DNA of 64,000 nucleotides, from the NCBI GenBank assembly GCA_963827165.1, contig CAWGZR010000006.1:78166-142165 (forward strand), given 5' to 3'. The notes beneath the pieces are model-generated. The model was not told where the DNA came from and did no database searches. It saw only the letters and a list, made by a program, of their open reading frames with translations. The stretch comes from Candidatus Bathyarchaeota archaeon. GTDB lineage: Archaea > Thermoproteota > Bathyarchaeia > Bathyarchaeales > Bathycorpusculaceae. Below, in pieces: positions 16,402 through 57,685 of the stretch; position 1 is the stretch's first letter, and every line of letters starts with the position of its first letter. The translations under genes and the position numbers were made by a program.

Positions 16402-16653
16402 TTAGTGAAAACTGCTTAAACCGAAAAACCTCAAAACGTTGATTCCGCGTTCCGTTGAACTGTAACCAACAGGGATATTATTTGCACCTACTATCAGCGT
16501 AATTAAAGATGTTTTAACAAGAATTTCTAAAGAATCTCCAAGTTGGCCTTCTCCAATTTTTGTGGTTGACAGCATGTCATCAAAAGTTATTTTGTTTCTT
16601 TTTTCCACAATCCGAAGTAAAGCTAAACACTGTTCAAGTTTGCTATGTTGCAT
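16402..16653 (-). CDS. Small winged-helix protein
   Basis: SKLE...LLRIV, LEILVKTSLI, YSSTERGINVLRFF. Confidence 0.7.
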   Translation of the reverse strand: MQHSKLEQCLALLRIVEKRNKITFDDMLSTTKIGEGQLGDSLEILVKTSLITLIVGANNIPVGYSSTERGINVLRFFGLSSFH

Positions 16654-16976
16654 TTGAAATCATAATTATTAATTTCACAAGATATATAAAAAATTTTGCA
16701 GTTCTTTTTCGCGAGAACACGAGCCATTATCCATTGCCATAAGCAAATGAAAAAGGAAATTTGCAGTAGCCCATCGAAAAAAGCCGCCCCCCGAACTGAA
16801 AGGAATAAAAGCCCTTTCCTTTCTCCTCGTTTTGCTCCTTTTCCCATAAAATGCTAAGCCGGCAAAATAGCGTATAAGTCATATTCCAAGAGCGGATTAA
16901 GTCGCAAAAGAAATTGACCTTTGATCGCGCCGCTTTGAGATGTAAGATTTAATTTGTGTGATACTTTGGGGATAAA

Positions 16977-17546
16977 TCACAAAACGCCACTTCGCTTGTC
17001 AACTGAGCCTACCAAAACATTCAACTCGTTTATGTCTAATTGCTGAGATAGCCATTTTTTAAGAATTAATGAAAAACTCGGCAATGCGCCCGTATACACG
17101 ATTAATTTGTTTCCCTTAAGTGCGTTGACTTGAAAAACCGTCATATCTTCTTTATAATTGAAAGTCAAGCTTTGCGCCTTTACTGCCAATGCCTTAAAAT
17201 CGCTCCACTGTTTGCATTGAAAAGTCGCGGAAGATAGGTTATCGAACGCCTTGAAAGGTGTAGTTTGACCCGTTTGCTCCTTAATTTGGGTTGGAAGAGT
17301 TCCTTTTGGCGAGTTGTCTAATACGAAGGCGATTAGGTTTGTTACTTCTTTTTGGATTTGGCTTATTGTTTCTTCAGTTTTTTCGACTTTACTGTTTAAT
17401 CCGTTTTTTGTCTTGCCTATTTGTTCGGTGACCGTTGCAATGTCATGAAATAATTTATCCAAATGCTGTTCATGTTCTTTTAGAGCGTTGATTATGAAAT
17501 CTAACGCCTCTAGAGATTTGTCTTTCGAGTCGTGGTCGTCTGTCAT
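16977..17546 (-). CDS. Conserved hypothetical protein, paralog of 34079-34636
   Basis: SLEALDFIINALKEHE and CKQWSDF...ALKGN shared with the 34 kb copy. Start moved to MTDDHDSK to match the paralog. Confidence 0.8.
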   Translation of the reverse strand: MTDDHDSKDKSLEALDFIINALKEHEQHLDKLFHDIATVTEQIGKTKNGLNSKVEKTEETISQIQKEVTNLIAFVLDNSPKGTLPTQIKEQTGQTTPFKAFDNLSSATFQCKQWSDFKALAVKAQSLTFNYKEDMTVFQVNALKGNKLIVYTGALPSFSLILKKWLSQQLDINELNVLVGSVDKRSGVL

Positions 17547-17770
17547 GTCTTTCAATTTCCAAGTTGAAACTAAGCTATTTTTCTTTTTAAGGCATATTTC
17601 GGCAAAGAAATATTCTATCTCTTGATAGTAGCGGCCAACAAGTTGGTTACGACTGGTTTTTTCAAGGTGATCATTTTTCTTCTGGAGCGGGACAAATATT
17701 ATATAGCAATACGTCATATACATTGCAAGGTTAAACACAGCTCTTTGTAGGAGCAAGTAGGTAAGGAAGA

Positions 17771-18139
17771 ATCAAAACGCGAAAAGAAGCAACGCTAACC
17801 TGCCCTAATCAGGCATGTGGAAAAGTTATCCCTAAGCCCCTAAAAACGCTTAATCTTCAGCAAGCTTCAGGAAAGCGCTATAACGCATGCCCTTATTGTT
17901 TAGAGGAAATTAATCTCGTTGAAATCGGGCGTAAAAATCCCGATGAAAAAACAGCTACACAAACTGAGTTCGTTGATAAAAAACCCGATCAAGCCGAGAG
18001 GAAATTACCAAATTGCAATCATTACTTTGGCTATATGAATGAAAAAGACCACAAGCAGCAAATCCCAGAAGACTGCATGTTGTGCCCTCAGGTAATGGAA
18101 TGCATGAAAGAAAAAGGGTCTGCAAAACCAAAAACTTAG
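17771..18139 (+). CDS. Cys-rich metal-binding protein without a canonical start
   Basis: Open frame between TAA (17762) and TAG (18137): IKTRKEATLTCPNQACGK...ACPYCLEE...CNHYFGYMNEKDHKQQIPEDCMLCPQVMECM. Confidence 0.7.
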   Translation: MKTRKEATLTCPNQACGKVIPKPLKTLNLQQASGKRYNACPYCLEEINLVEIGRKNPDEKTATQTEFVDKKPDQAERKLPNCNHYFGYMNEKDHKQQIPEDCMLCPQVMECMKEKGSAKPKT

Positions 18140-18551
18140 ATTAAAGAAAAAACATCGGCTTCCTACCTGAAATTCTATGAGCATCTGTCTTCCCAGTGAT
18201 GCCGACTCTTTCAGCCAAGCGAATCACAATTTAATGAACTAAACTTCGCAAAAGGCTTTTTCCAAATTTTTTGACATAATCCAACTCTGGAATACGCCTT
18301 TTAAGGCATAAAAGCAACTTACTTATTGAGGAGAAAGGAGAGCTTCTCAGAAAAGGGAAAGGGGAAAACTCCCCATTATTTTAGTTCGGAAAAGTTAGCT
18401 GTTCTCTTGATCGTAAAACTTTTACATTCAAATTATAACTTACTAGTCCTAAGAGGTTATTTTGAATCATTAATTATGAAGGAACGATATGCAAGTTTGG
18501 ATTGTCTACCCCAACAACCCGACAGAGTACTTGCTAAAAAACATGAAAACT

Positions 18552-18701
18552 TTACAGAATGATTACACTACCACAGTAGTCGCCCGAATTGAAAGATGTT
18601 TTGCAATGTCCACATCTATAATGTTCAACGTGAAACCAGTTATTTGTTATCCATTTATCAGGTTTAGAAACTTCTTTTCCACATTTAGGACATTTAGCCA
18701 T
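18552..18701 (-). CDS. Cren7-like zinc-ribbon microprotein (49 aa)
   Basis: MAKCPKCGKEVSKPDKWITNNWFHVEHYRCGHCKTSFNSGDYCGSVIIL; paralog at 19710. Confidence 0.75.
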   Translation of the reverse strand: MAKCPKCGKEVSKPDKWITNNWFHVEHYRCGHCKTSFNSGDYCGSVIIL

Positions 18702-18950
18702 TCCAAAACGCACTTTTTTGCAATACTGTAACTAGTTATTGCCAAGAAGCGATTTAACTATTGCTTATTATTTGATTATGAATCAATCATACAATGCTTG
18801 AATACGAATTCAGCTTATTGGAAAGACTTTAACGCGTAAGTTAAATAGAAAAATAGGAATCTAGCAATGACATAATCCATTTCAGAAATATCCCTTTAAC
18901 CGCTGGAAACAAGTTCTCTTTCTTACTTGAGAATCGAATAGTTTCTCAAA

Positions 18951-19190
18951 ATGACGGGTTCAGAGGGTAACTTGATGATTTGCGATTGGTGCGGAAAGAA
19001 CCATTCAGGGATTAGGCAAAGTAAAGAAGTTTTCCACGTACTTGATAGTTATGCAGCAACTCCAGTCATATGCGAAGATTGTTATCGCAAATTGGAGAAA
19101 ACAAAATCATACATTTGGAAGCGAAAGAATTCAAAGGTCGTTAAACCAAGAGTTTCTGATGACTTCTGCTTGGAACTTACTGAGGTTTAA
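18951..19190 (+). CDS. Small zinc-finger protein
   Basis: CDWCGK...VICEDCY; GAGGG upstream of the internal MIC start. Confidence 0.6.
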   Translation: MTGSEGNLMICDWCGKNHSGIRQSKEVFHVLDSYAATPVICEDCYRKLEKTKSYIWKRKNSKVVKPRVSDDFCLELTEV

Positions 19191-19320
19191 TCCTTTGCTC
19201 TCCAGTGGTTAAACGTTAATCTACCCACAAGTTGCACCAAATTGCAGGTTTTGCTGGTTCTCCCAGTGTGTGCAGTCTCTTTATTTCTTGAGCTAGGCGT
19301 CTGAATTCGCGTTTTTAATA

Positions 19321-19474
19321 TTAGGATTGTCTAATATTGTATAATATTGTCTGAAAGTGTACAATACTACATTATAGTGTATATACGTGTATAATTTTGT
19401 ATTATTACGACTCAACCTGCAAACGAATTAAGCTTCCCGGCAAGAAAGCAACCCAAAACACAATCAAAAAAATT
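19321..19474 (-). repeat. Leader plus 10-bp-period array, copy C
   Basis: Leader 19409-19474 matches 56463-56528 at 52/66 ungapped positions. Units on the minus strand: gtcgtaataa tacaaaatta tacacgtata tacactataa tgtagtattg tacactttca gacaatatta tacaatatta gacaatccta. Confidence 0.85.
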
Positions 19475-19520
19475 CCCCTTCCAAAAAAACCGCGCGATCT
19501 CTATTCACAAATCTGCAATC

Positions 19521-19616
19521 TTTTTTTTACAACTTTTAGGCTATTTCAGAGGTTTTGAGAGAATCGTTGTAACTAATCCAACCTCCCTAACAAAAAAGCA
19601 AGCCAACACGAATTGT
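19521..19616 (-). repeat. Probable degenerate leader plus short array, copy D
   Basis: 19559-19616 matches copy B leader at about 31/58 ungapped positions. Followed on the minus strand by tctcaaaacc tctgaaatag cctaaaagtt gtaaaaaaaa. Confidence 0.45.
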
Positions 19617-19709
19617 GTCCGATGATTTGTTGCAACTTGCTGTGCCAACATGGTTTCATATGTTATGGTGTTGTAGTCTAAACGTAACTAACTTCAAACG
19701 GTGACTTGC

Positions 19710-19862
19710 TTGGCCATTTGTCCTAAATGCGGCAATGACGTAGTTGCGCCTAATAAGAAACTAGAGAACTCTTTGTTCTGCGTGGCTGTTTTCAAGTGTG
19801 CAAGATGTGGAAGTAATTTCAAGACTCAGCACATGAATACGTTTAATTATGAACCAAAGTAG
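19710..19862 (+). CDS. Cren7-like zinc-ribbon microprotein (50 aa)
   Basis: GGTGA SD then TTG: MAICPKCGNDVVAPNKKLENSLFCVAVFKCARCGSNFKTQHMNTFNYEPK. Confidence 0.75.
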   Translation: MAICPKCGNDVVAPNKKLENSLFCVAVFKCARCGSNFKTQHMNTFNYEPK

Positions 19863-19971
19863 TCGAGGTCAATGGATTCAGTAAATATTGTTTCTCGTTA
19901 TTCTCTTCCAAAGTCAAATTGCCAACTTGGGCTAATTCGTCTATCCATCAAATTTGCATTAAGAGAATTTT

Positions 19972-20280
19972 TTAGAGCCAGAGTGAGGGCTTCTGGCGGG
20001 CATCTGTCACGTCTGTATCAATCATGTCTGCAGCGCGCTCTAAGACTTGTTTGGTCAATTCCATGCAAATTGCTGGCGCTTTTAGGTGAACCACTGGCAC
20101 ATCGTCATTTACCAGTTTTTTGTGTGTGCTTACATGATGGTCAATTTCTTCGATCATTTCGCCCAATGTCGGAACCATAGGGATTTTTTCACCGCATTCA
20201 GGGCACCTTATGTATTTGATTTGGGTTTGTTCAGTGACGTTTTCTTTAGATTCTTCATTTTTATTTAAATTAGTTATCAT
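19972..20280 (-). CDS. Small C2H2-like zinc-finger protein
   Basis: IRCPECGEKI...IDHHVSTH; AGGTG SD upstream. Confidence 0.7.
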   Translation of the reverse strand: MITNLNKNEESKENVTEQTQIKYIRCPECGEKIPMVPTLGEMIEEIDHHVSTHKKLVNDDVPVVHLKAPAICMELTKQVLERAADMIDTDVTDARQKPSLWL

Positions 20281-20627
20281 GAATAGACACCTTGCACGTA
20301 AATGGATTAAATGAGGGTTTAAGCGCTTATAACATGCTCATGTATCGCAACTGATCATCTTTCTGCGTTCATTTAACTCTGAGTTCATCAATCAGGCATT
20401 TTTTAGAGTTACATGCAGGCCTAAATTAGAGCGATTTGCCTTTTTTATGCTAAAACGGCTAAAACCCTCCCAACAATATAGCGGAACATCATTAGAGGTC
20501 CTCTTTCATTATTTTTCTATTTTACGCATGAGACAGCCTCAATGTCAAGAGGGAATTATGAACTCCGATAGGAATAACCAGCGGATGAACCTCTTTTTCT
20601 TATCGATAGCGAATTCAAATTTTGATG

Positions 20628-20705
20628 TGGTGGACCGGGCGGGATTTGAACCCGCGGCTTCCGCGTTGCGAACGCGGCGATCATACCAGGCTGATCTACC
20701 GGCCC
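20628..20705 (-). tRNA. tRNA-Ala (anticodon CGC), intronless, CCA encoded
   Basis: GGGCCGGTAGATCAGCCTGGTATGATCGCCGCGTTCGCAACGCGGAAGCCGCGGGTTCAAATCCCGCCCGGTCCACCA; G3:U70 pair, anticodon arm CCGCG-TTCGCAA-CGCGG. Confidence 0.97.
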
Positions 20706-55018: not shown

Positions 55019-56323
55019 TTATGGTCCCTTTTTGGTTACTTCTTTTATAACGCCGGCAGCTACGGTTGTGCCCATGTCTCTGATTGCGAAGCGTCCTAGC
55101 TCTGGAAAGTCAGTGTACTGTTCGACTGCAATTGGATGAAGCGGCTCCATTCTTACCCATGCTGCGTCTCCTGTCTTGAGGAATGCTGGTTTCTCTTCTG
55201 TCACTTGGCCTGTGCGTGGATCGATTTTCTTGACGAGTTCTGTGAATTTGACTGCGATTTGTCCTGTGTGGTAGTGAAGTACTGGTGTGTATCCTGCTGC
55301 TATGGCAGTTGGGTGATAAATGACGATGATTTGGCCGATGAATTCTTTTGCTACTGTTGGTGGGTTGTCAACGGTTCCTGCTACGTCGCCTCTGTGAATG
55401 TCAGCTTTGGCTATGCCTCTTACGTTCATGCCGATGTTGTCGCCTGGTTCAGCCATTGGAATCATTGTGTGGTGCATTTCGATTGATTTAACTTCGCCTG
55501 TCTTGTTGCTTGGCATGAAGATTATGTTTTGTCCTGGTTTTAGAATGCCTGTTTCGACTCTGCCAACTGGTACTGTGCCGATGCCTGTGATGCTGTAAAT
55601 GTCTTGGACGGGTACGCGGAGGGGTTTGTTAGTTGGTTTAGCTGGGACTTCAAGGAGGTCTAACGCTTCAATTAGGGTTGGACCAGTGTACCATGGTAAC
55701 TTGTCGGTTTTTTTGATGAGGTTTTCGCCAGTCCAGCCTGAAACGGGTATGAAGTTGATTTTTTCGATTTTGAAGCCTACCATTCGGAGCATTCTTGAAA
55801 CTTCGTTCTTTATTTCTTCGTAGCGTTCTTTGCTATAGTTTACAGAGATGTCGTCCATTTTGTTTACTGCAACGATTAGTTGGCGGATGCCCAATGTGAA
55901 TGCGAGAAAAGCGTGTTCACGGGTTTGTCCTCCTGGACCGATGCCTGCTTCGAACTCGCCTTTTTTGGCCGAGCAGAAAAGAACTGCTGCGTCTGCTTGG
56001 CTTGCACCTGTAATCATGTTCTTTACGAAGTCGCGGTGTCCTGGTGCATCGATGACTGTGTAGTTGAATTTCTTGGTTTCGAATTTGAGGAACCGTAGGT
56101 CAATTGTAACTCCTCTTTCTCGTTCTTCTTTGAGGTTGTCGAGTACCCAAGCGTACTTGAATGTGCCTTTGCCCATTTTTTCGGCTTCTTCTTCAAAGGC
56201 TTTGATTGTCCGCTCGTCGATAGCGCCTGCTAAGTAAAGAAGGTGACCTGTAGTTGTTGATTTTCCGTGGTCAACGTGCCCCATGATTATGAGGTTTAAG
56301 TGGGGTTTTTCTGATTTGCTCAT
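55019..56323 (-). CDS. tuf: Translation elongation factor EF-1 alpha
   Basis: [47 protein letters not shown]. Confidence 0.98.
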
Positions 56324-56462
56324 TTTTTCTTCCTCTGTTAATGCATACCTAATTTATGAATTCGTAATCACATCAGTTCACCCAATTATTTTAAGTTTGT
56401 GCGTCTGACTCCCCCAAAAAAGGTAAAGTTGAGGCATTAGGTTTGTGAAAGTTGCGACTTTA

Positions 56463-56625
56463 AATTTTTTTCTTTGTTTTTTGGGTTGCTTTTTGGGTTT
56501 GGGGCTTGAATCGTTTGCAGGTTGCGTCAACTAAAGTCTACTAAAGTCAACTATAGTCTATAAAAGTCAACTAAAGTCAATAAAAGTCCGCTAAAGTCAA
56601 CTAACGTCAACAGAAGTCAACAGGT
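56463..56625 (+). repeat. Leader plus 10-bp-period array, copy A
   Basis: Leader 56463-56528, then ten units from 56526: gtcaactaaa gtctactaaa gtcaactata gtctataaaa gtcaactaaa gtcaataaaa gtccgctaaa gtcaactaac gtcaacagaa gtcaacaggt. Confidence 0.92.
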
Positions 56626-56724
56626 GGCCAATAGGTTCACCTAACACAGAAGCCAAAAGTCGTGACTGAAACAAAACTCAAGAAGTGTCGGTTGACGATA
56701 GTTTGCAGCTTTTCGACCAGAGTA

Positions 56725-56850
56725 TATTTGTGTCTTGGGTCGGTTTTTTGGTTTTTGGCTTGGATTGGCTGCAGGTTAAGTCTAAAAGTCTCCTTAAATC
56801 GCCTAAAATCTCTTAAAAATTCTCGTTTTCTTTAAATTCTCTCAAAATGC
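56725..56850 (+). repeat. Leader plus degenerate array, copy B
   Basis: 56725-56782 matches 56471-56528 at 44/58 ungapped positions; then tctaaaagtc tccttaaatc gcctaaaatc tcttaaaaat tctc...tctcaaaatg. Confidence 0.78.
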
Positions 56851-57022
56851 AATCAAGGCAACGGCAAAAAGCCAAAACAAGACCAAGCAACTTCCTGTTA
56901 TTTGCCGGTCCAGGATTTTTCGGGTGCCCTTAATTGCTCGGTATTGCCGGATTTGGACGCGTCTTTTTTGGTGGCTTAGGTTTAGGTGGGCTTATTAGCC
57001 GAGGGTTGACAATGGCTTATCT

Positions 57023-57685
57023 ATGAGTACGCTTAGCGGCACATTTCAGAGGGTGTCCGTGGTTACCACCACTTGGAACGAAAGAGAAAACATTGAAGAG
57101 CTAATCCTCAGGATCAAATCCACACTTAAGGGTATCCCCCACGAAATAATAGTTGTTGATGACAGCTCTTCTGACGGAACTTTAGACGTTGCGAAGCGCA
57201 TTGCGGATGTAGCGGTATCTAAAGTTCGGGAGGGACAATCCAAAGGTTTGCTTTATGGGATGAACCTGGCCAAGTTCCCTATAATTGTCACCATTGACGC
57301 GGACTTAGAAAACAATCCCGAACTTATCCCTCCCTTGATTCAGAAACTTGAAGACGTTGATTTAGCCGTGGCCTCAAGAACAGTTGTCCCAAGGTTCTCC
57401 GAGAGATTTGCTACCAAAACTTTGGGCAAAAAAATTGGCGTTTCAGATTTTTACTCCAACTTTAGAGCCTACAAAAAAGAAACCCTCCAAGGCTTGACAT
57501 TGCAGGGCGGTGAAACCTTCGGCGGCGAGTTGCTGGTCAAGGCAAAAAAGAATGGATTCAAAATCGGTGAAATAAAATATGATGCTCCACCCAGGCGCAA
57601 TAATCCTCGCATAGGCGGTGACATTCGCGCAAACCTCAGAATATCAGCTGCGACACTCAAATGCCTAATTATCTATTTGTTTTAA
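57023..57685 (+). CDS. Glycosyltransferase family 2 (DPM synthase-like)
   Basis: TWNERENI, IVVDDSSSDGT, IDADL. Confidence 0.9.
   Translation: MSTLSGTFQRVSVVTTTWNERENIEELILRIKSTLKGIPHEIIVVDDSSSDGTLDVAKRIADVAVSKVREGQSKGLLYGMNLAKFPIIVTIDADLENNPELIPPLIQKLEDVDLAVASRTVVPRFSERFATKTLGKKIGVSDFYSNFRAYKKETLQGLTLQGGETFGGELLVKAKKNGFKIGEIKYDAPPRRNNPRIGGDIRANLRISAATLKCLIIYLF

Follow-up and report, generated by a model that had tools for sequence, protein, structure and literature searches.

A dispersed leader-array family with boxes phased at 10 nt in Bathyarchaeia: a probable archaeal counterpart of the MraZ–operator system

Introduction

Why does one short intergenic leader recur in an archaeal genome, each time followed by a tandem array that keeps a 10-nt period but changes its sequence? 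The question is posed by a 64,000-nt stretch of a Candidatus Bathyarchaeota archaeon genome (GenBank assembly GCA_963827165.1, contig CAWGZR010000006.1, positions 78,166 to 142,165 of the forward strand), which is referred to here as the window and corresponds to G000:C6:78166-142165. The genome, G000, comprises 3.13 Mb in 14 contigs, with a G+C content of about 44%. Three intergenic modules of this kind were noticed in the window from the letters alone: A and B on the plus strand, and C on the minus strand. That sequence-only reading described them as a dispersed non-coding family with a shared leader.

The modules probably represent an archaeal, PhS018-type counterpart of the MraZ–operator system. 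A family of 92-residue proteins is encoded directly behind some of the arrays; the predicted DNA-reading loops of these proteins and the arrays themselves appear to have diversified together, and the cassette has apparently multiplied as about ninety gene-less copies, here called orphans. A literature search at the level of listings, with subscription journals outside its scope, found no description of such a system.

A family of modules held in 10-nt phase

Each module consists of a leader, an array of 10-nt units, and a tail of about 100 nt that has its own sequence for each class of array. A BLAST search with leader A returns 43 matches in G000. A leader profile made from 65 BLAST matches, and used with nhmmer at a cut-off of E<0.01, gives 99 matches in the genome and none in the reversed genome. 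The modules are spread across all contigs, frequently in same-strand runs of two to five, and some degenerate copies are missed by the profile, such as the second module behind C5:684033. The dispersed non-coding family proposed by the sequence-only reading is therefore real: the coordinates and identities given for the window copies are exact, and there are 99 copies.

The period is far more constant than the sequence. Within the 70 nt that follow the leader, the best autocorrelation period is exactly 10 in 88 of the 99 copies, compared with 185 of 3000 random intergenic windows, and lag-10 identity is 0.5 or more in 75 of the 99 arrays, compared with 2 of 3000. All 50 strong period-10 arrays in the genome adjoin a leader in the correct orientation. 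Of 438 box-to-box distances, 342 are exactly 10; another 37 are 20 or 30, and five are 9 or 11. A profile scan of the genome had been proposed as a check; it yielded more copies, nearly all with a period-10 array (88/99), and the outcome that would have refuted the reading, namely leader matches mostly without arrays, did not occur. The claim that phase is kept while sequence varies was likewise upheld by the 342 exact spacings.

Arrays contain between 3 and 12 units, with a median of 7 across 85 arrays. In G000, the unit is a box of 3–5 bp joined to an A/T-rich spacer: A and T make up about 90% of unit positions 4–6, G or C predominates at position 8, and conservation is highest at positions 9–10. 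Because the boxes lie exactly 10 bp apart, all of them face one side of the helix.

The sequence-only reading held that every copy has a different unit. Units do vary, but they fall into about 12 recurring classes, each named after the five letters that end its unit consensus. The largest are AAGTC (13 arrays), ACATC (10), ATCTC (9), TAGTC (8), ACGTC (8), and TAAGC (6); TTGAC, CCGTC, TATGC, and ACGTA have four arrays each, and there are others besides. At the end of the leader, the last bases depend on the class and make up a box 0 that keeps the register of the array. In paralogous arrays the unit variants follow a common order, and the differences are gains or losses of whole units (C7:2859, C14:24141, C9:75311). 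Consequently, the arrays must be copied and slip, and are not made afresh for each leader.

In the window, leader A lies at 56460..56528 on the plus strand (nhmmer match C6:134625-134693, E 2.7e-14). It is rich in T and G, with 35 T, 19 G, 7 C, and 5 A within 56463-56528, and its final five nucleotides, GCGTC, are box 0 in register with the array. Array A (56529..56618, plus) has nine units, NNNNAAAGTC / NNNNAACGTC, and a degenerate tenth; it belongs to class AAGTC, the class with 13 arrays, and has a lag-10 identity of 0.73. Tail A (56619..56724, plus), delimited by tail alignments, abuts leader B directly. Its class-specific sequence (...CAGGYGRCC...AGAAGCCAAAGATCGTGAC...) is common to other AAGTC/ACGTC modules; in the gene-linked copy at C7:2859, its homologue is the spacer that separates array from ATG.

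Leader B (56725..56782, plus; nhmmer match C6:134890-134947, E 7.6e-8) is a diverged copy, identical to the last 58 nt of leader A at 44 of 58 positions. Array B (56783..56842, plus) comprises four to six degenerate units (TAAAAGTCTC CTTAAATCGC CTAAAATCTC ...) of the ATCTC class, which has nine arrays, with a lag-10 identity of 0.50. The A and B pair is paralogous to C5:707385+707639. Leader C (19409..19479, minus; nhmmer match C6:97644-97574, E 2.6e-12) matches leader A without gaps at 52 of 66 positions (56463-56528, plus, against 19474-19409, minus). Array C (19329..19408, minus) has about eight units of TATAC/AGAC class, with a lag-10 identity of 0.55; at least five arrays belong to TATAC/TAGAC-type classes that resemble it, and its TAC/GAC kind of box also precedes a gene at C10:79785-80060. 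Tandem Repeats Finder reports period 10 at 56526-56621 (9.6 copies), 56782-56818 (3.6 copies), and 19326-19402 (7.7 copies).

A linked family of 92-residue proteins

Directly behind seven or eight of the 99 modules stands a gene for a protein of 92 amino acids that starts MPL(D/T/N)...; its ATG lies 18–54 nt beyond the last box. The genes at C1:49645-49920 (box TAGTC), C10:65803-66078 (ACGTA), C10:79785-80060 (TAC/GAC), and C10:89725-90000 (TCTC) are examples of these paralogues. The sequence-only reading offered no linked protein and missed this gene family, which has a DNA-binding fold, along with its covariation with the boxes (see below). A hidden Markov model of the family finds seven loci in G000 (five intact, one with a broken C-terminus, and one frameshifted), plus weak scraps, and a module is located directly upstream at all seven. 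About 90% of the modules (about ninety) are gene-less orphans. The 400 nt following all 99 leaders were translated in three frames and scanned with hmmsearch for gene remnants behind orphans. None was detected; the scan recovered the known genes, the frameshifted copy on contig C3, and two further matches with E values of 0.3–0.4. The orphans are thus not recent gene wrecks.

The family is present in 37 of the 61 genus genomes searched, with up to 13 matches in each, many of them broken or fragments. A further 89 loci were retrieved from related genomes. Together with five from G000, 78 of these provide 83 full-length cassettes, and 72 of the 83 have a leader match upstream. No conserved downstream partner gene (toxin, NTPase, division and cell wall (dcw) genes, or partition ATPase) occurs in the 26 loci listed. 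Near cassettes L041, L055, L059, and L062, PIN-like open reading frames (ORFs; ...LVVDSSILIFF..., ...LLYIDSNVFIHP...) and other small ORFs occur downstream of the 92-residue gene, which suggests that these cassettes reside in variable regions rich in toxin–antitoxin genes.

A Pfam scan of the protein gives only sub-threshold matches: MraZ at E 0.13 (12.7 bits, where the cut-off is 23, covering residues 55–66 only) and DUF7864 at E 0.12. The protein therefore falls outside the MraZ family proper (PF02381, with two MraZ domains). The family profile nevertheless matches structure 2glw in the PDB at E 2e-4 over residues 8–73 (hmmsearch), while MraZ chains follow at E 1.3–1.7. An AlphaFold2 model, with a mean predicted local distance difference test score (pLDDT) of 86.5, has a duplicated strand-strand-helix-strand element in a swapped-hairpin layout. 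The top Foldseek match of this model is PhS018 (2glw), with a template modelling (TM) score of 0.72 over 93 columns, an E value of 5.7e-5, and 24% identity. The next are MraZ chains (probability 0.97–1.00, query-normalised TM score 0.42–0.47), including 2026 cryo-EM complexes with promoter DNA.

The predicted fold is accordingly of the swapped-hairpin AbrB type, with two loops that bear basic residues. It also has the properties of a PhS018-like single-chain barrel: a length of about 92 residues, an internal duplication, and similarity to 2glw. PhS018 itself is from Pyrococcus horikoshii, where it is listed as a '92aa long hypothetical protein', and it shares both the length and the single-chain internal duplication of the present family. 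The literature search, at the level of listings, found no stated function or DNA target for it.

One loop residue tracks the box

Mutual information was calculated between each protein column and box positions 8–10 in 67 cassettes that were less than 92% identical, with arrays registered by the leader end. The box entropy is 3.0 bits, of which protein column 16 shares 2.24 (z 13.9). Columns 35 (z 8.1) and 57 (z 7.0) come after it, and other equally variable columns have z of about 5 or less, a comparison that controls internally for common descent alone. Glycine at residue 16 occurs with GTC in 18 of 19 cassettes, cysteine with GTC in 7 of 8, glutamine with GTA in 5 of 6, and histidine with GGT or GAT in 7 of 8; phenylalanine, leucine, or serine occurs with GAC. 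Nearly all boxes have G at position 8, and R61 is nearly universal too; R18 is mostly conserved, with K, T, N, or A instead in some subfamilies.

The same relationship is evident in pairs of cassettes that are at least 70% identical outside the loops. Residue 16 and box are both the same in 27 pairs and both different in 25, residue 16 differs while the box is the same in 13, and residue 16 is the same while the box differs in four. Residue 16 thus differs in 25 of the 29 pairs with differing boxes, and three of the four exceptions reflect ambiguity between GAT and GGT in the consensus. For example, L054 and L082 are 84% identical, and have K versus S at residue 16 and GTT versus GAC as the box. 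In longer form, the L054 type (K) goes with GCGTT, and the L082 and L057 types (S or F) go with GCGAC.

The parallel with MraZ and a proposed mechanism

MraZ binds three to four GTG(G/T) boxes with a six-nucleotide separation, and the transcription start site lies inside box 1 (PMC12957436). In the cradle described there, Lys13, Arg15, and Arg86 read bases, and Asp11 and Asp82 hold these three residues in place; Lys13 touches a base, and Asp82 orients Arg86 (PMC12957436).

The present system is alike in three respects. Both proteins have a swapped-hairpin (AbrB-type) cradle, with two pseudo-symmetric loops that carry D/E-x-x-N/x-R motifs. Both have direct repeats of a 3–4-bp box and a 6-nt spacer ahead of their own gene; the arrays described here have the form of an operator, in which short boxes repeat directly every 10 bp ahead of the gene for the regulator itself. 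Lastly, transcription starts in box 1 in MraZ, and a start in the first unit is predicted here from the promoter motif of relatives (see below). Within the loops, E14-K15-G16-N17-R18 can be set beside D11-x-K13-N14-R15 of MraZ, and D57...R61 beside D82...R86. Judged by this motif spacing rather than by superposition, positions 16 and 57 would be the equivalents of MraZ Lys13 and Asp82.

The two systems also differ in important ways. MraZ has about 140–150 residues, and the protein described here, which is archaeal, has 92. MraZ is the gene that comes first in the dcw cluster, followed by mraW and fts genes, whereas neither a dcw gene nor another conserved partner was observed in the 26 loci listed. 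In place of the three to four boxes of MraZ, there are 3–12 boxes here. There are up to 13 paralogue matches per genome (fragments included), and each intact paralogue has its own box. Finally, every array here has a conserved leader of about 70 nt in front of it, and about 90% of the G000 modules are without a gene.

These observations can be combined into a mechanism. The T/G-rich leader would be a shared upstream and promoter region, and the array a multi-box operator of 3–12 boxes of 3–5 bp, each with its A/T-rich spacer. The boxes would be read by the cognate 92-residue single-chain swapped-hairpin protein (AbrB superfamily, PhS018-like), whose gene lies directly behind one array of its class. 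Binding may be cooperative, by analogy with MraZ, a ring-shaped oligomer that binds its GTG(G/T) boxes cooperatively. The arginines of the two hairpin loops (the near-invariant R61, and the less constant R18) would read the near-constant G of the box, and position 16, two residues before the first arginine, would determine the choice of box. The paralogues may then have diversified together with their arrays. Orphans may have arisen by duplication, insertion, and recombination of the leader-array-tail unit, and could be bound in trans by the cognate paralogue, whether they serve as additional regulated promoters or decoys or are just neutral passengers.

A bolder version of this scheme is conceivable, and we regard it as rather doubtful. 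The leader-array-tail unit might be a mobile promoter-operator 'address' that enters intergenic DNA, with an 8-bp target duplication at one insert and without inverted ends or a transposase of its own, and that a co-diversifying family of PhS018-like proteins reads through a one-residue switch. Such units would provide orthogonal, protein-addressable sites throughout the genome, instead of a set of ordinary autoregulated genes. If so, the sites might serve in silencing, in chromosome organisation, or in conflict between genetic elements.

If the MraZ-like interpretation is correct, it would provide a proposed function and DNA target for the PhS018 fold, which was solved in 2006 and for which no stated role was found. 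The family offers a natural series of dozens of protein–box pairings whose boxes follow a single loop residue. They could be used as a test bed for the way AbrB/MraZ-type cradles read DNA, and might be a source of orthogonal repressor–operator pairs. Bathyarchaeia are major uncultured archaea of soil and peat, and their gene regulation is almost unstudied.

Promoter signals and RNA evidence

A promoter position weight matrix (PWM) was built from the upstream regions of 36 tRNA genes, giving the motif RnAAAnnYTTAAW. In these genes the motif, comprising the transcription factor B recognition element (BRE) and TATA box, usually starts 45–51 nt before the mature end. Among the cassettes of relatives, 29 of 67 have their best PWM match beginning 31 or 30 nt ahead of the array (-31/-30), and in 28 of 67 the match there reaches at least 8 bits; the TATA part is centred about 20 nt before the array start. 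Given the usual distance from TATA to start, this placement predicts a transcription start in the first array unit. In G000, the best PWM sites are at the leader start (-71 to -67) in 28 of 77 modules and at -31 to -29 in 7 of 77, and others are inside arrays. With weak sites scattered in this manner, no single start can be called in this genome.

Sequencing data were available for three metatranscriptome runs (X8, X9, X11) and one DNA run (X2), all as contigs. RNA contigs have no strand, ends, or per-copy level, and their 31-mers are common to many copies and species, so that depth is a sum. Read in this way, the modules are apparently present in RNA at a high summed level. A leader 31-mer of the family consensus (window 56465-56495, three mismatches to A) has values of 55, 16.8, 320, and 3 in X8, and depths of 60 in X9 and 190 in X11. 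Bins of the EF-1alpha gene, which lies next to module A, have 13–30, 1–15, and 7–31 across the three RNA runs, and the glycosyltransferase gene on the other side has 0 in X8 and X11. The corresponding bin of the DNA run X2 has 27 versus about 6. One X8 RNA contig of 151 nt covers 20 nt of the leader end, the array, and 77 nt of the tail of the orphan copy C6:47870. Array B is uncovered by RNA contigs in X8 and X11, although contigs cannot show absence.

Could the orphans then be genes for non-coding RNA (ncRNA), in which the tandem 10-nt motifs act at the RNA level, for instance as a sponge or scaffold for an RNA-binding protein? The depth of the leader 31-mer in all three runs relative to EF-1alpha, with the next gene at 0 in X8 and X11, would be expected of such genes, as would the contig that runs from leader end to tail in orphan C6:47870. 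The orphans also have no fixed orientation to their neighbours, and their tails are conserved within classes. We nevertheless consider this explanation unlikely. RNAalifold finds no consensus structure in 77 leaders on either strand (minimum free energy 0.0), and none in 14 AAGTC/ACGTC tails on either strand, where the alignment is ragged and weak hairpins are possible. Against the covariance models of Rfam 15, the whole window yields only tRNA at gathering scores, and window 56300-57000 yields nothing even at E<=1. An ncRNA family had been one suggestion of the sequence-only reading, and these searches lend it no support. The strict 10.0-nt phase and the covariation with a DNA-reading loop point instead to recognition at the DNA level, and the RNA contigs reveal neither strand nor ends, with depths summed over copies and species. 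Moreover, the presence of RNA is compatible with the MraZ-like interpretation, since operators near a start site would themselves be transcribed.

Spread of the modules and empty sites in relatives

Leader matches are numerous in 8 of 24 genomes of the same genus and absent in 6 of 24. Outside the genus, 3 of 16 genomes have a single weak match. Presence and absence in relatives were scored only at the four syntenic loci, and at all four of these cleanly comparable loci the matching site in relatives is without a module. The spacer between the EF-1alpha and glycosyltransferase genes is 150–170 nt in G003, G016, G013, and G001, and about 645 nt in G000. At C5:684033, the spacer is 10–37 nt in three relatives and 558 nt in G000. 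At C9:283377, 4 nt (TAA..TTG) separate the two neighbouring genes in G003, G016, and G013, and 596 nt separate them in G000. At C5:707385, the spacer is about 57 nt in G013 and 668 nt in G000, where no flanking repeat was seen; the G003 spacer there is 459 nt, and the comparison rests on G013. Other loci are non-syntenic or rearranged in relatives: locus C, the C5:677608 cluster, C9:278620, C9:285538, and the clusters at C10:347275 and C10:353413. The three-module cluster at C10:353413-353751 falls exactly at a synteny break with G003 and G016.

The insert at G000:C5:683627-684184 contains two modules flanked by an exact 8-bp direct repeat, TAACTGAA, and is placed between a terminator and a conserved promoter that are 10–37 nt apart in the three relatives. 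The insert at G000:C9:283251-283847, also of two modules, has diverged target copies at both junctions, and the TTG start of the downstream PHP-like gene is lost in G000. The three clean inserts thus comprise one with an exact 8-bp direct repeat, one with degenerate target copies, and one with no repeat. Paralogous loci share only 150–570 bp in a mosaic fashion, with borders at the leader start, in the array, or inside the gene.

An alternative is that the orphans are selfish or neutral DNA, resembling miniature inverted-repeat transposable elements (MITEs), which was derived from the control region of the regulator gene and has no host function. MITEs are typified by terminal inverted repeats and target-site duplication. 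MITEs and the repetitive extragenic palindromic (REP) and bacterial interspersed mosaic element (BIME) repeats are short, non-coding, high-copy, intergenic, and variable between related genomes. The modules are short, non-coding, high-copy, intergenic, and variable between related genomes as well. Their absence from the matching sites of relatives at four of four loci, the 8-bp direct repeat at one insert and the diverged target copies at another, the patchy copy number within the genus, and the short mosaic similarity of paralogues all fit this explanation.

Several lines of evidence nonetheless make it improbable. Unlike in such elements, no terminal inverted repeats or palindromes were seen in the modules, they have a leader-array-tail anatomy, and they are linked to a DNA-binding protein family instead of a transposase. 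Neither terminal inverted repeats nor shared termini were found at the two inserts inspected (C5:684033 and C9:283377), and C5:707385 is without a flanking repeat. No transposase or integrase is consistently adjacent: TnpB has 0 matches in the genome, and the 13–14 DDE and 6–7 integrase matches of G000 are all away from modules. A 19-nt leader core has no match among IMG/VR contigs, and the A–B region (window 56439-56900) has none in plasmid or phage collections. Furthermore, boxes are kept equally well in orphan and gene-linked arrays (60 versus 8 arrays), which implies either recent origin or constraint. With about 90 orphans in a genome, found even where relatives have just 4 nt from one gene to the next, a promoter-operator cassette would seem to multiply in Bathyarchaeia in the manner of a mobile element.

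Architectural DNA and other repeat systems

Much less probable is the view that the arrays are architectural DNA, that is, a bent or wrapped platform for chromatin positioning or a centromere-like function, in which the box sequence is secondary. The period of exactly 10, the roughly 90% A/T content of unit positions 4–6, which amounts to phased A-rich tracts, and the 99 sites over all contigs are what such a platform would display. However, arrays and classes each conserve their box sequence, which follows a protein residue, and some arrays of relatives have C/T-rich spacers, such as TTTTCCCGTT and TTTCTGCGAC. The sites are not positionally conserved, and no partition ATPase or partner gene is adjacent.

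The comparison with plasmid centromeres is instructive in this regard. In parC/ParR systems, helically phased short direct repeats lie upstream of a small binding-protein gene and overlap its promoter. The phased short-repeat arrays upstream of a small-protein gene are shared with the present family. Here, by contrast, there is no adjacent NTPase or filament gene, the roughly 99 sites are chromosomal, and plasmid collections give no match; the arrays are not linked to a partition NTPase operon, as those of a plasmid-type centromere are. The sequence-only reading had listed a loading site with a bent or wrapped DNA platform among its options, with selection acting on helical phasing. A protein-binding DNA platform with its sites on one helix face is the best reading, whereas the centromere or origin role also suggested there does not fit 99 copies with no adjacent partition or replication gene and no conserved gene next to them.

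CRISPR (clustered regularly interspaced short palindromic repeats) loci also have a conserved leader followed by a tandem array. They are characterised by repeats of at least 20 nt, unique spacers, and cas genes; the modules have 10-nt units with a 3–5-bp conserved core, no spacers, and no cas genes nearby, so that their exclusion from CRISPR in the sequence-only reading was correct. Its further proposal, that a leader-directed enzyme makes the 10-nt repeats afresh in the manner of telomerase or CRISPR adaptation, draws on the leader's last bases being the first box and varying with array class, but it is extremely improbable, because the common order of unit variants and the whole-unit insertions and deletions are what inheritance by copying and slippage gives, no candidate enzyme gene is linked, and the classes match paralogous predicted binding proteins.

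Weighing the MraZ-like interpretation

For the orphans, the ncRNA, selfish, and architectural explanations partly overlap with the MraZ-like interpretation. Six observations weigh against the latter. First, about 30 of the 99 arrays belong to classes (ACATC, TAAGC/TATGC/AACGC, TTGAC, and AAGAA) that have no cognate gene in the G000 assembly, which is 94.5% complete. Second, the cassettes in the pair comparison are related, so that the covariation counts do not represent independent events. Third, the promoter placement seen in relatives is rare in G000 itself, where only 4 of 77 modules reach 8 bits or more at -30, and most have GGGGCTTGGAT where relatives have AAAGCTTAAAT.

Fourth, the 5' half of the leader, upstream of the predicted start, is the most abundant part in RNA, which requires that another start, read-through, or antisense transcription exists. 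Fifth, the orphans have no preferred orientation to the next gene: the next ORF is in the same orientation in 48 cases and the opposite in 51, as counted from crude ORF calls in which 20 leaders overlapped a called ORF. The orphans are thus not ordinary promoters of neighbouring host genes, a role that was considered and rejected on this count.

Sixth, the leader core is not always followed by an array. GTDB genomes contain this 19-nt core in 113 or more stretches, almost all from metagenome-assembled genomes (MAGs) of Bathyarchaeia. Among the 80 listed loci that were analysed, 71 are archaeal; the core precedes non-periodic sequence in 38 of the 71 and sequence of period 10 in 33. In 13 Bathyarchaeia MAG loci (L142, L155, L161, L164, L178, L183, L187, L188, L196, L198, L207, L210, and L220), the core is followed by a conserved non-periodic sequence (...GGGATGGGCGG.TTGCGACTTT..ATGTTGAC..ATTGTCG...), at about 250–320 of each locus. 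A palindrome, TTTTGGAATATTCCAAAA, occurs in four more core loci (L176, L189, L195, and L209). Because such non-periodic cargo can follow the core, it seems that the leader has a more general use as an upstream element and carries more than one kind of cargo.

Setting of the modules in the window

Modules A and B are located between the divergent EF-1alpha gene (55019-56323, minus) and a glycosyltransferase-like gene (57023-57685, plus). The stretch immediately 5' of leader A (56439..56462, plus) contains AGGTTTGTGAA and looks akin to the tail end of ACATC-class modules, which often stand ahead of other leaders. The corresponding sequence upstream of leader C is AGATTTGTGAA, and together they define an AGRTTTGTGAA motif. 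The upstream AG(G/A) motif that the sequence-only reading saw in both A and C is thus present. It is not a general part of the family, since AGRTTTGTKA occurs within about 70 nt upstream of just 5 of the 99 leaders.

Just upstream of module C lies a degenerate fourth module (19530..19606, minus; nhmmer C6:97771-97731, E 0.0075), with a weak leader and two to three ACCTC-like units. Its projected leader end is at window 19559, and its tail contains the AGATTTGTGAA motif. The segment at window 16500-20600, which holds module C and lies beside a tRNA-Ala gene (20628-20705, minus), has no contiguous counterpart in five relatives; beyond it, the tRNA and a gene for a 1018-residue protein are syntenic with relatives. 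This segment looks like a variable island at a tRNA gene.

At the other locus, an RNA contig from run X8 terminates in Illumina adapter at window 56336, 13 nt 5' of the EF-1alpha ATG, which is likely to be the 5' end of the EF-1alpha mRNA. A BRE/TATA-like sequence, AAACTTAAAATAAT, at 56382-56399 (minus) is kept in three relatives.

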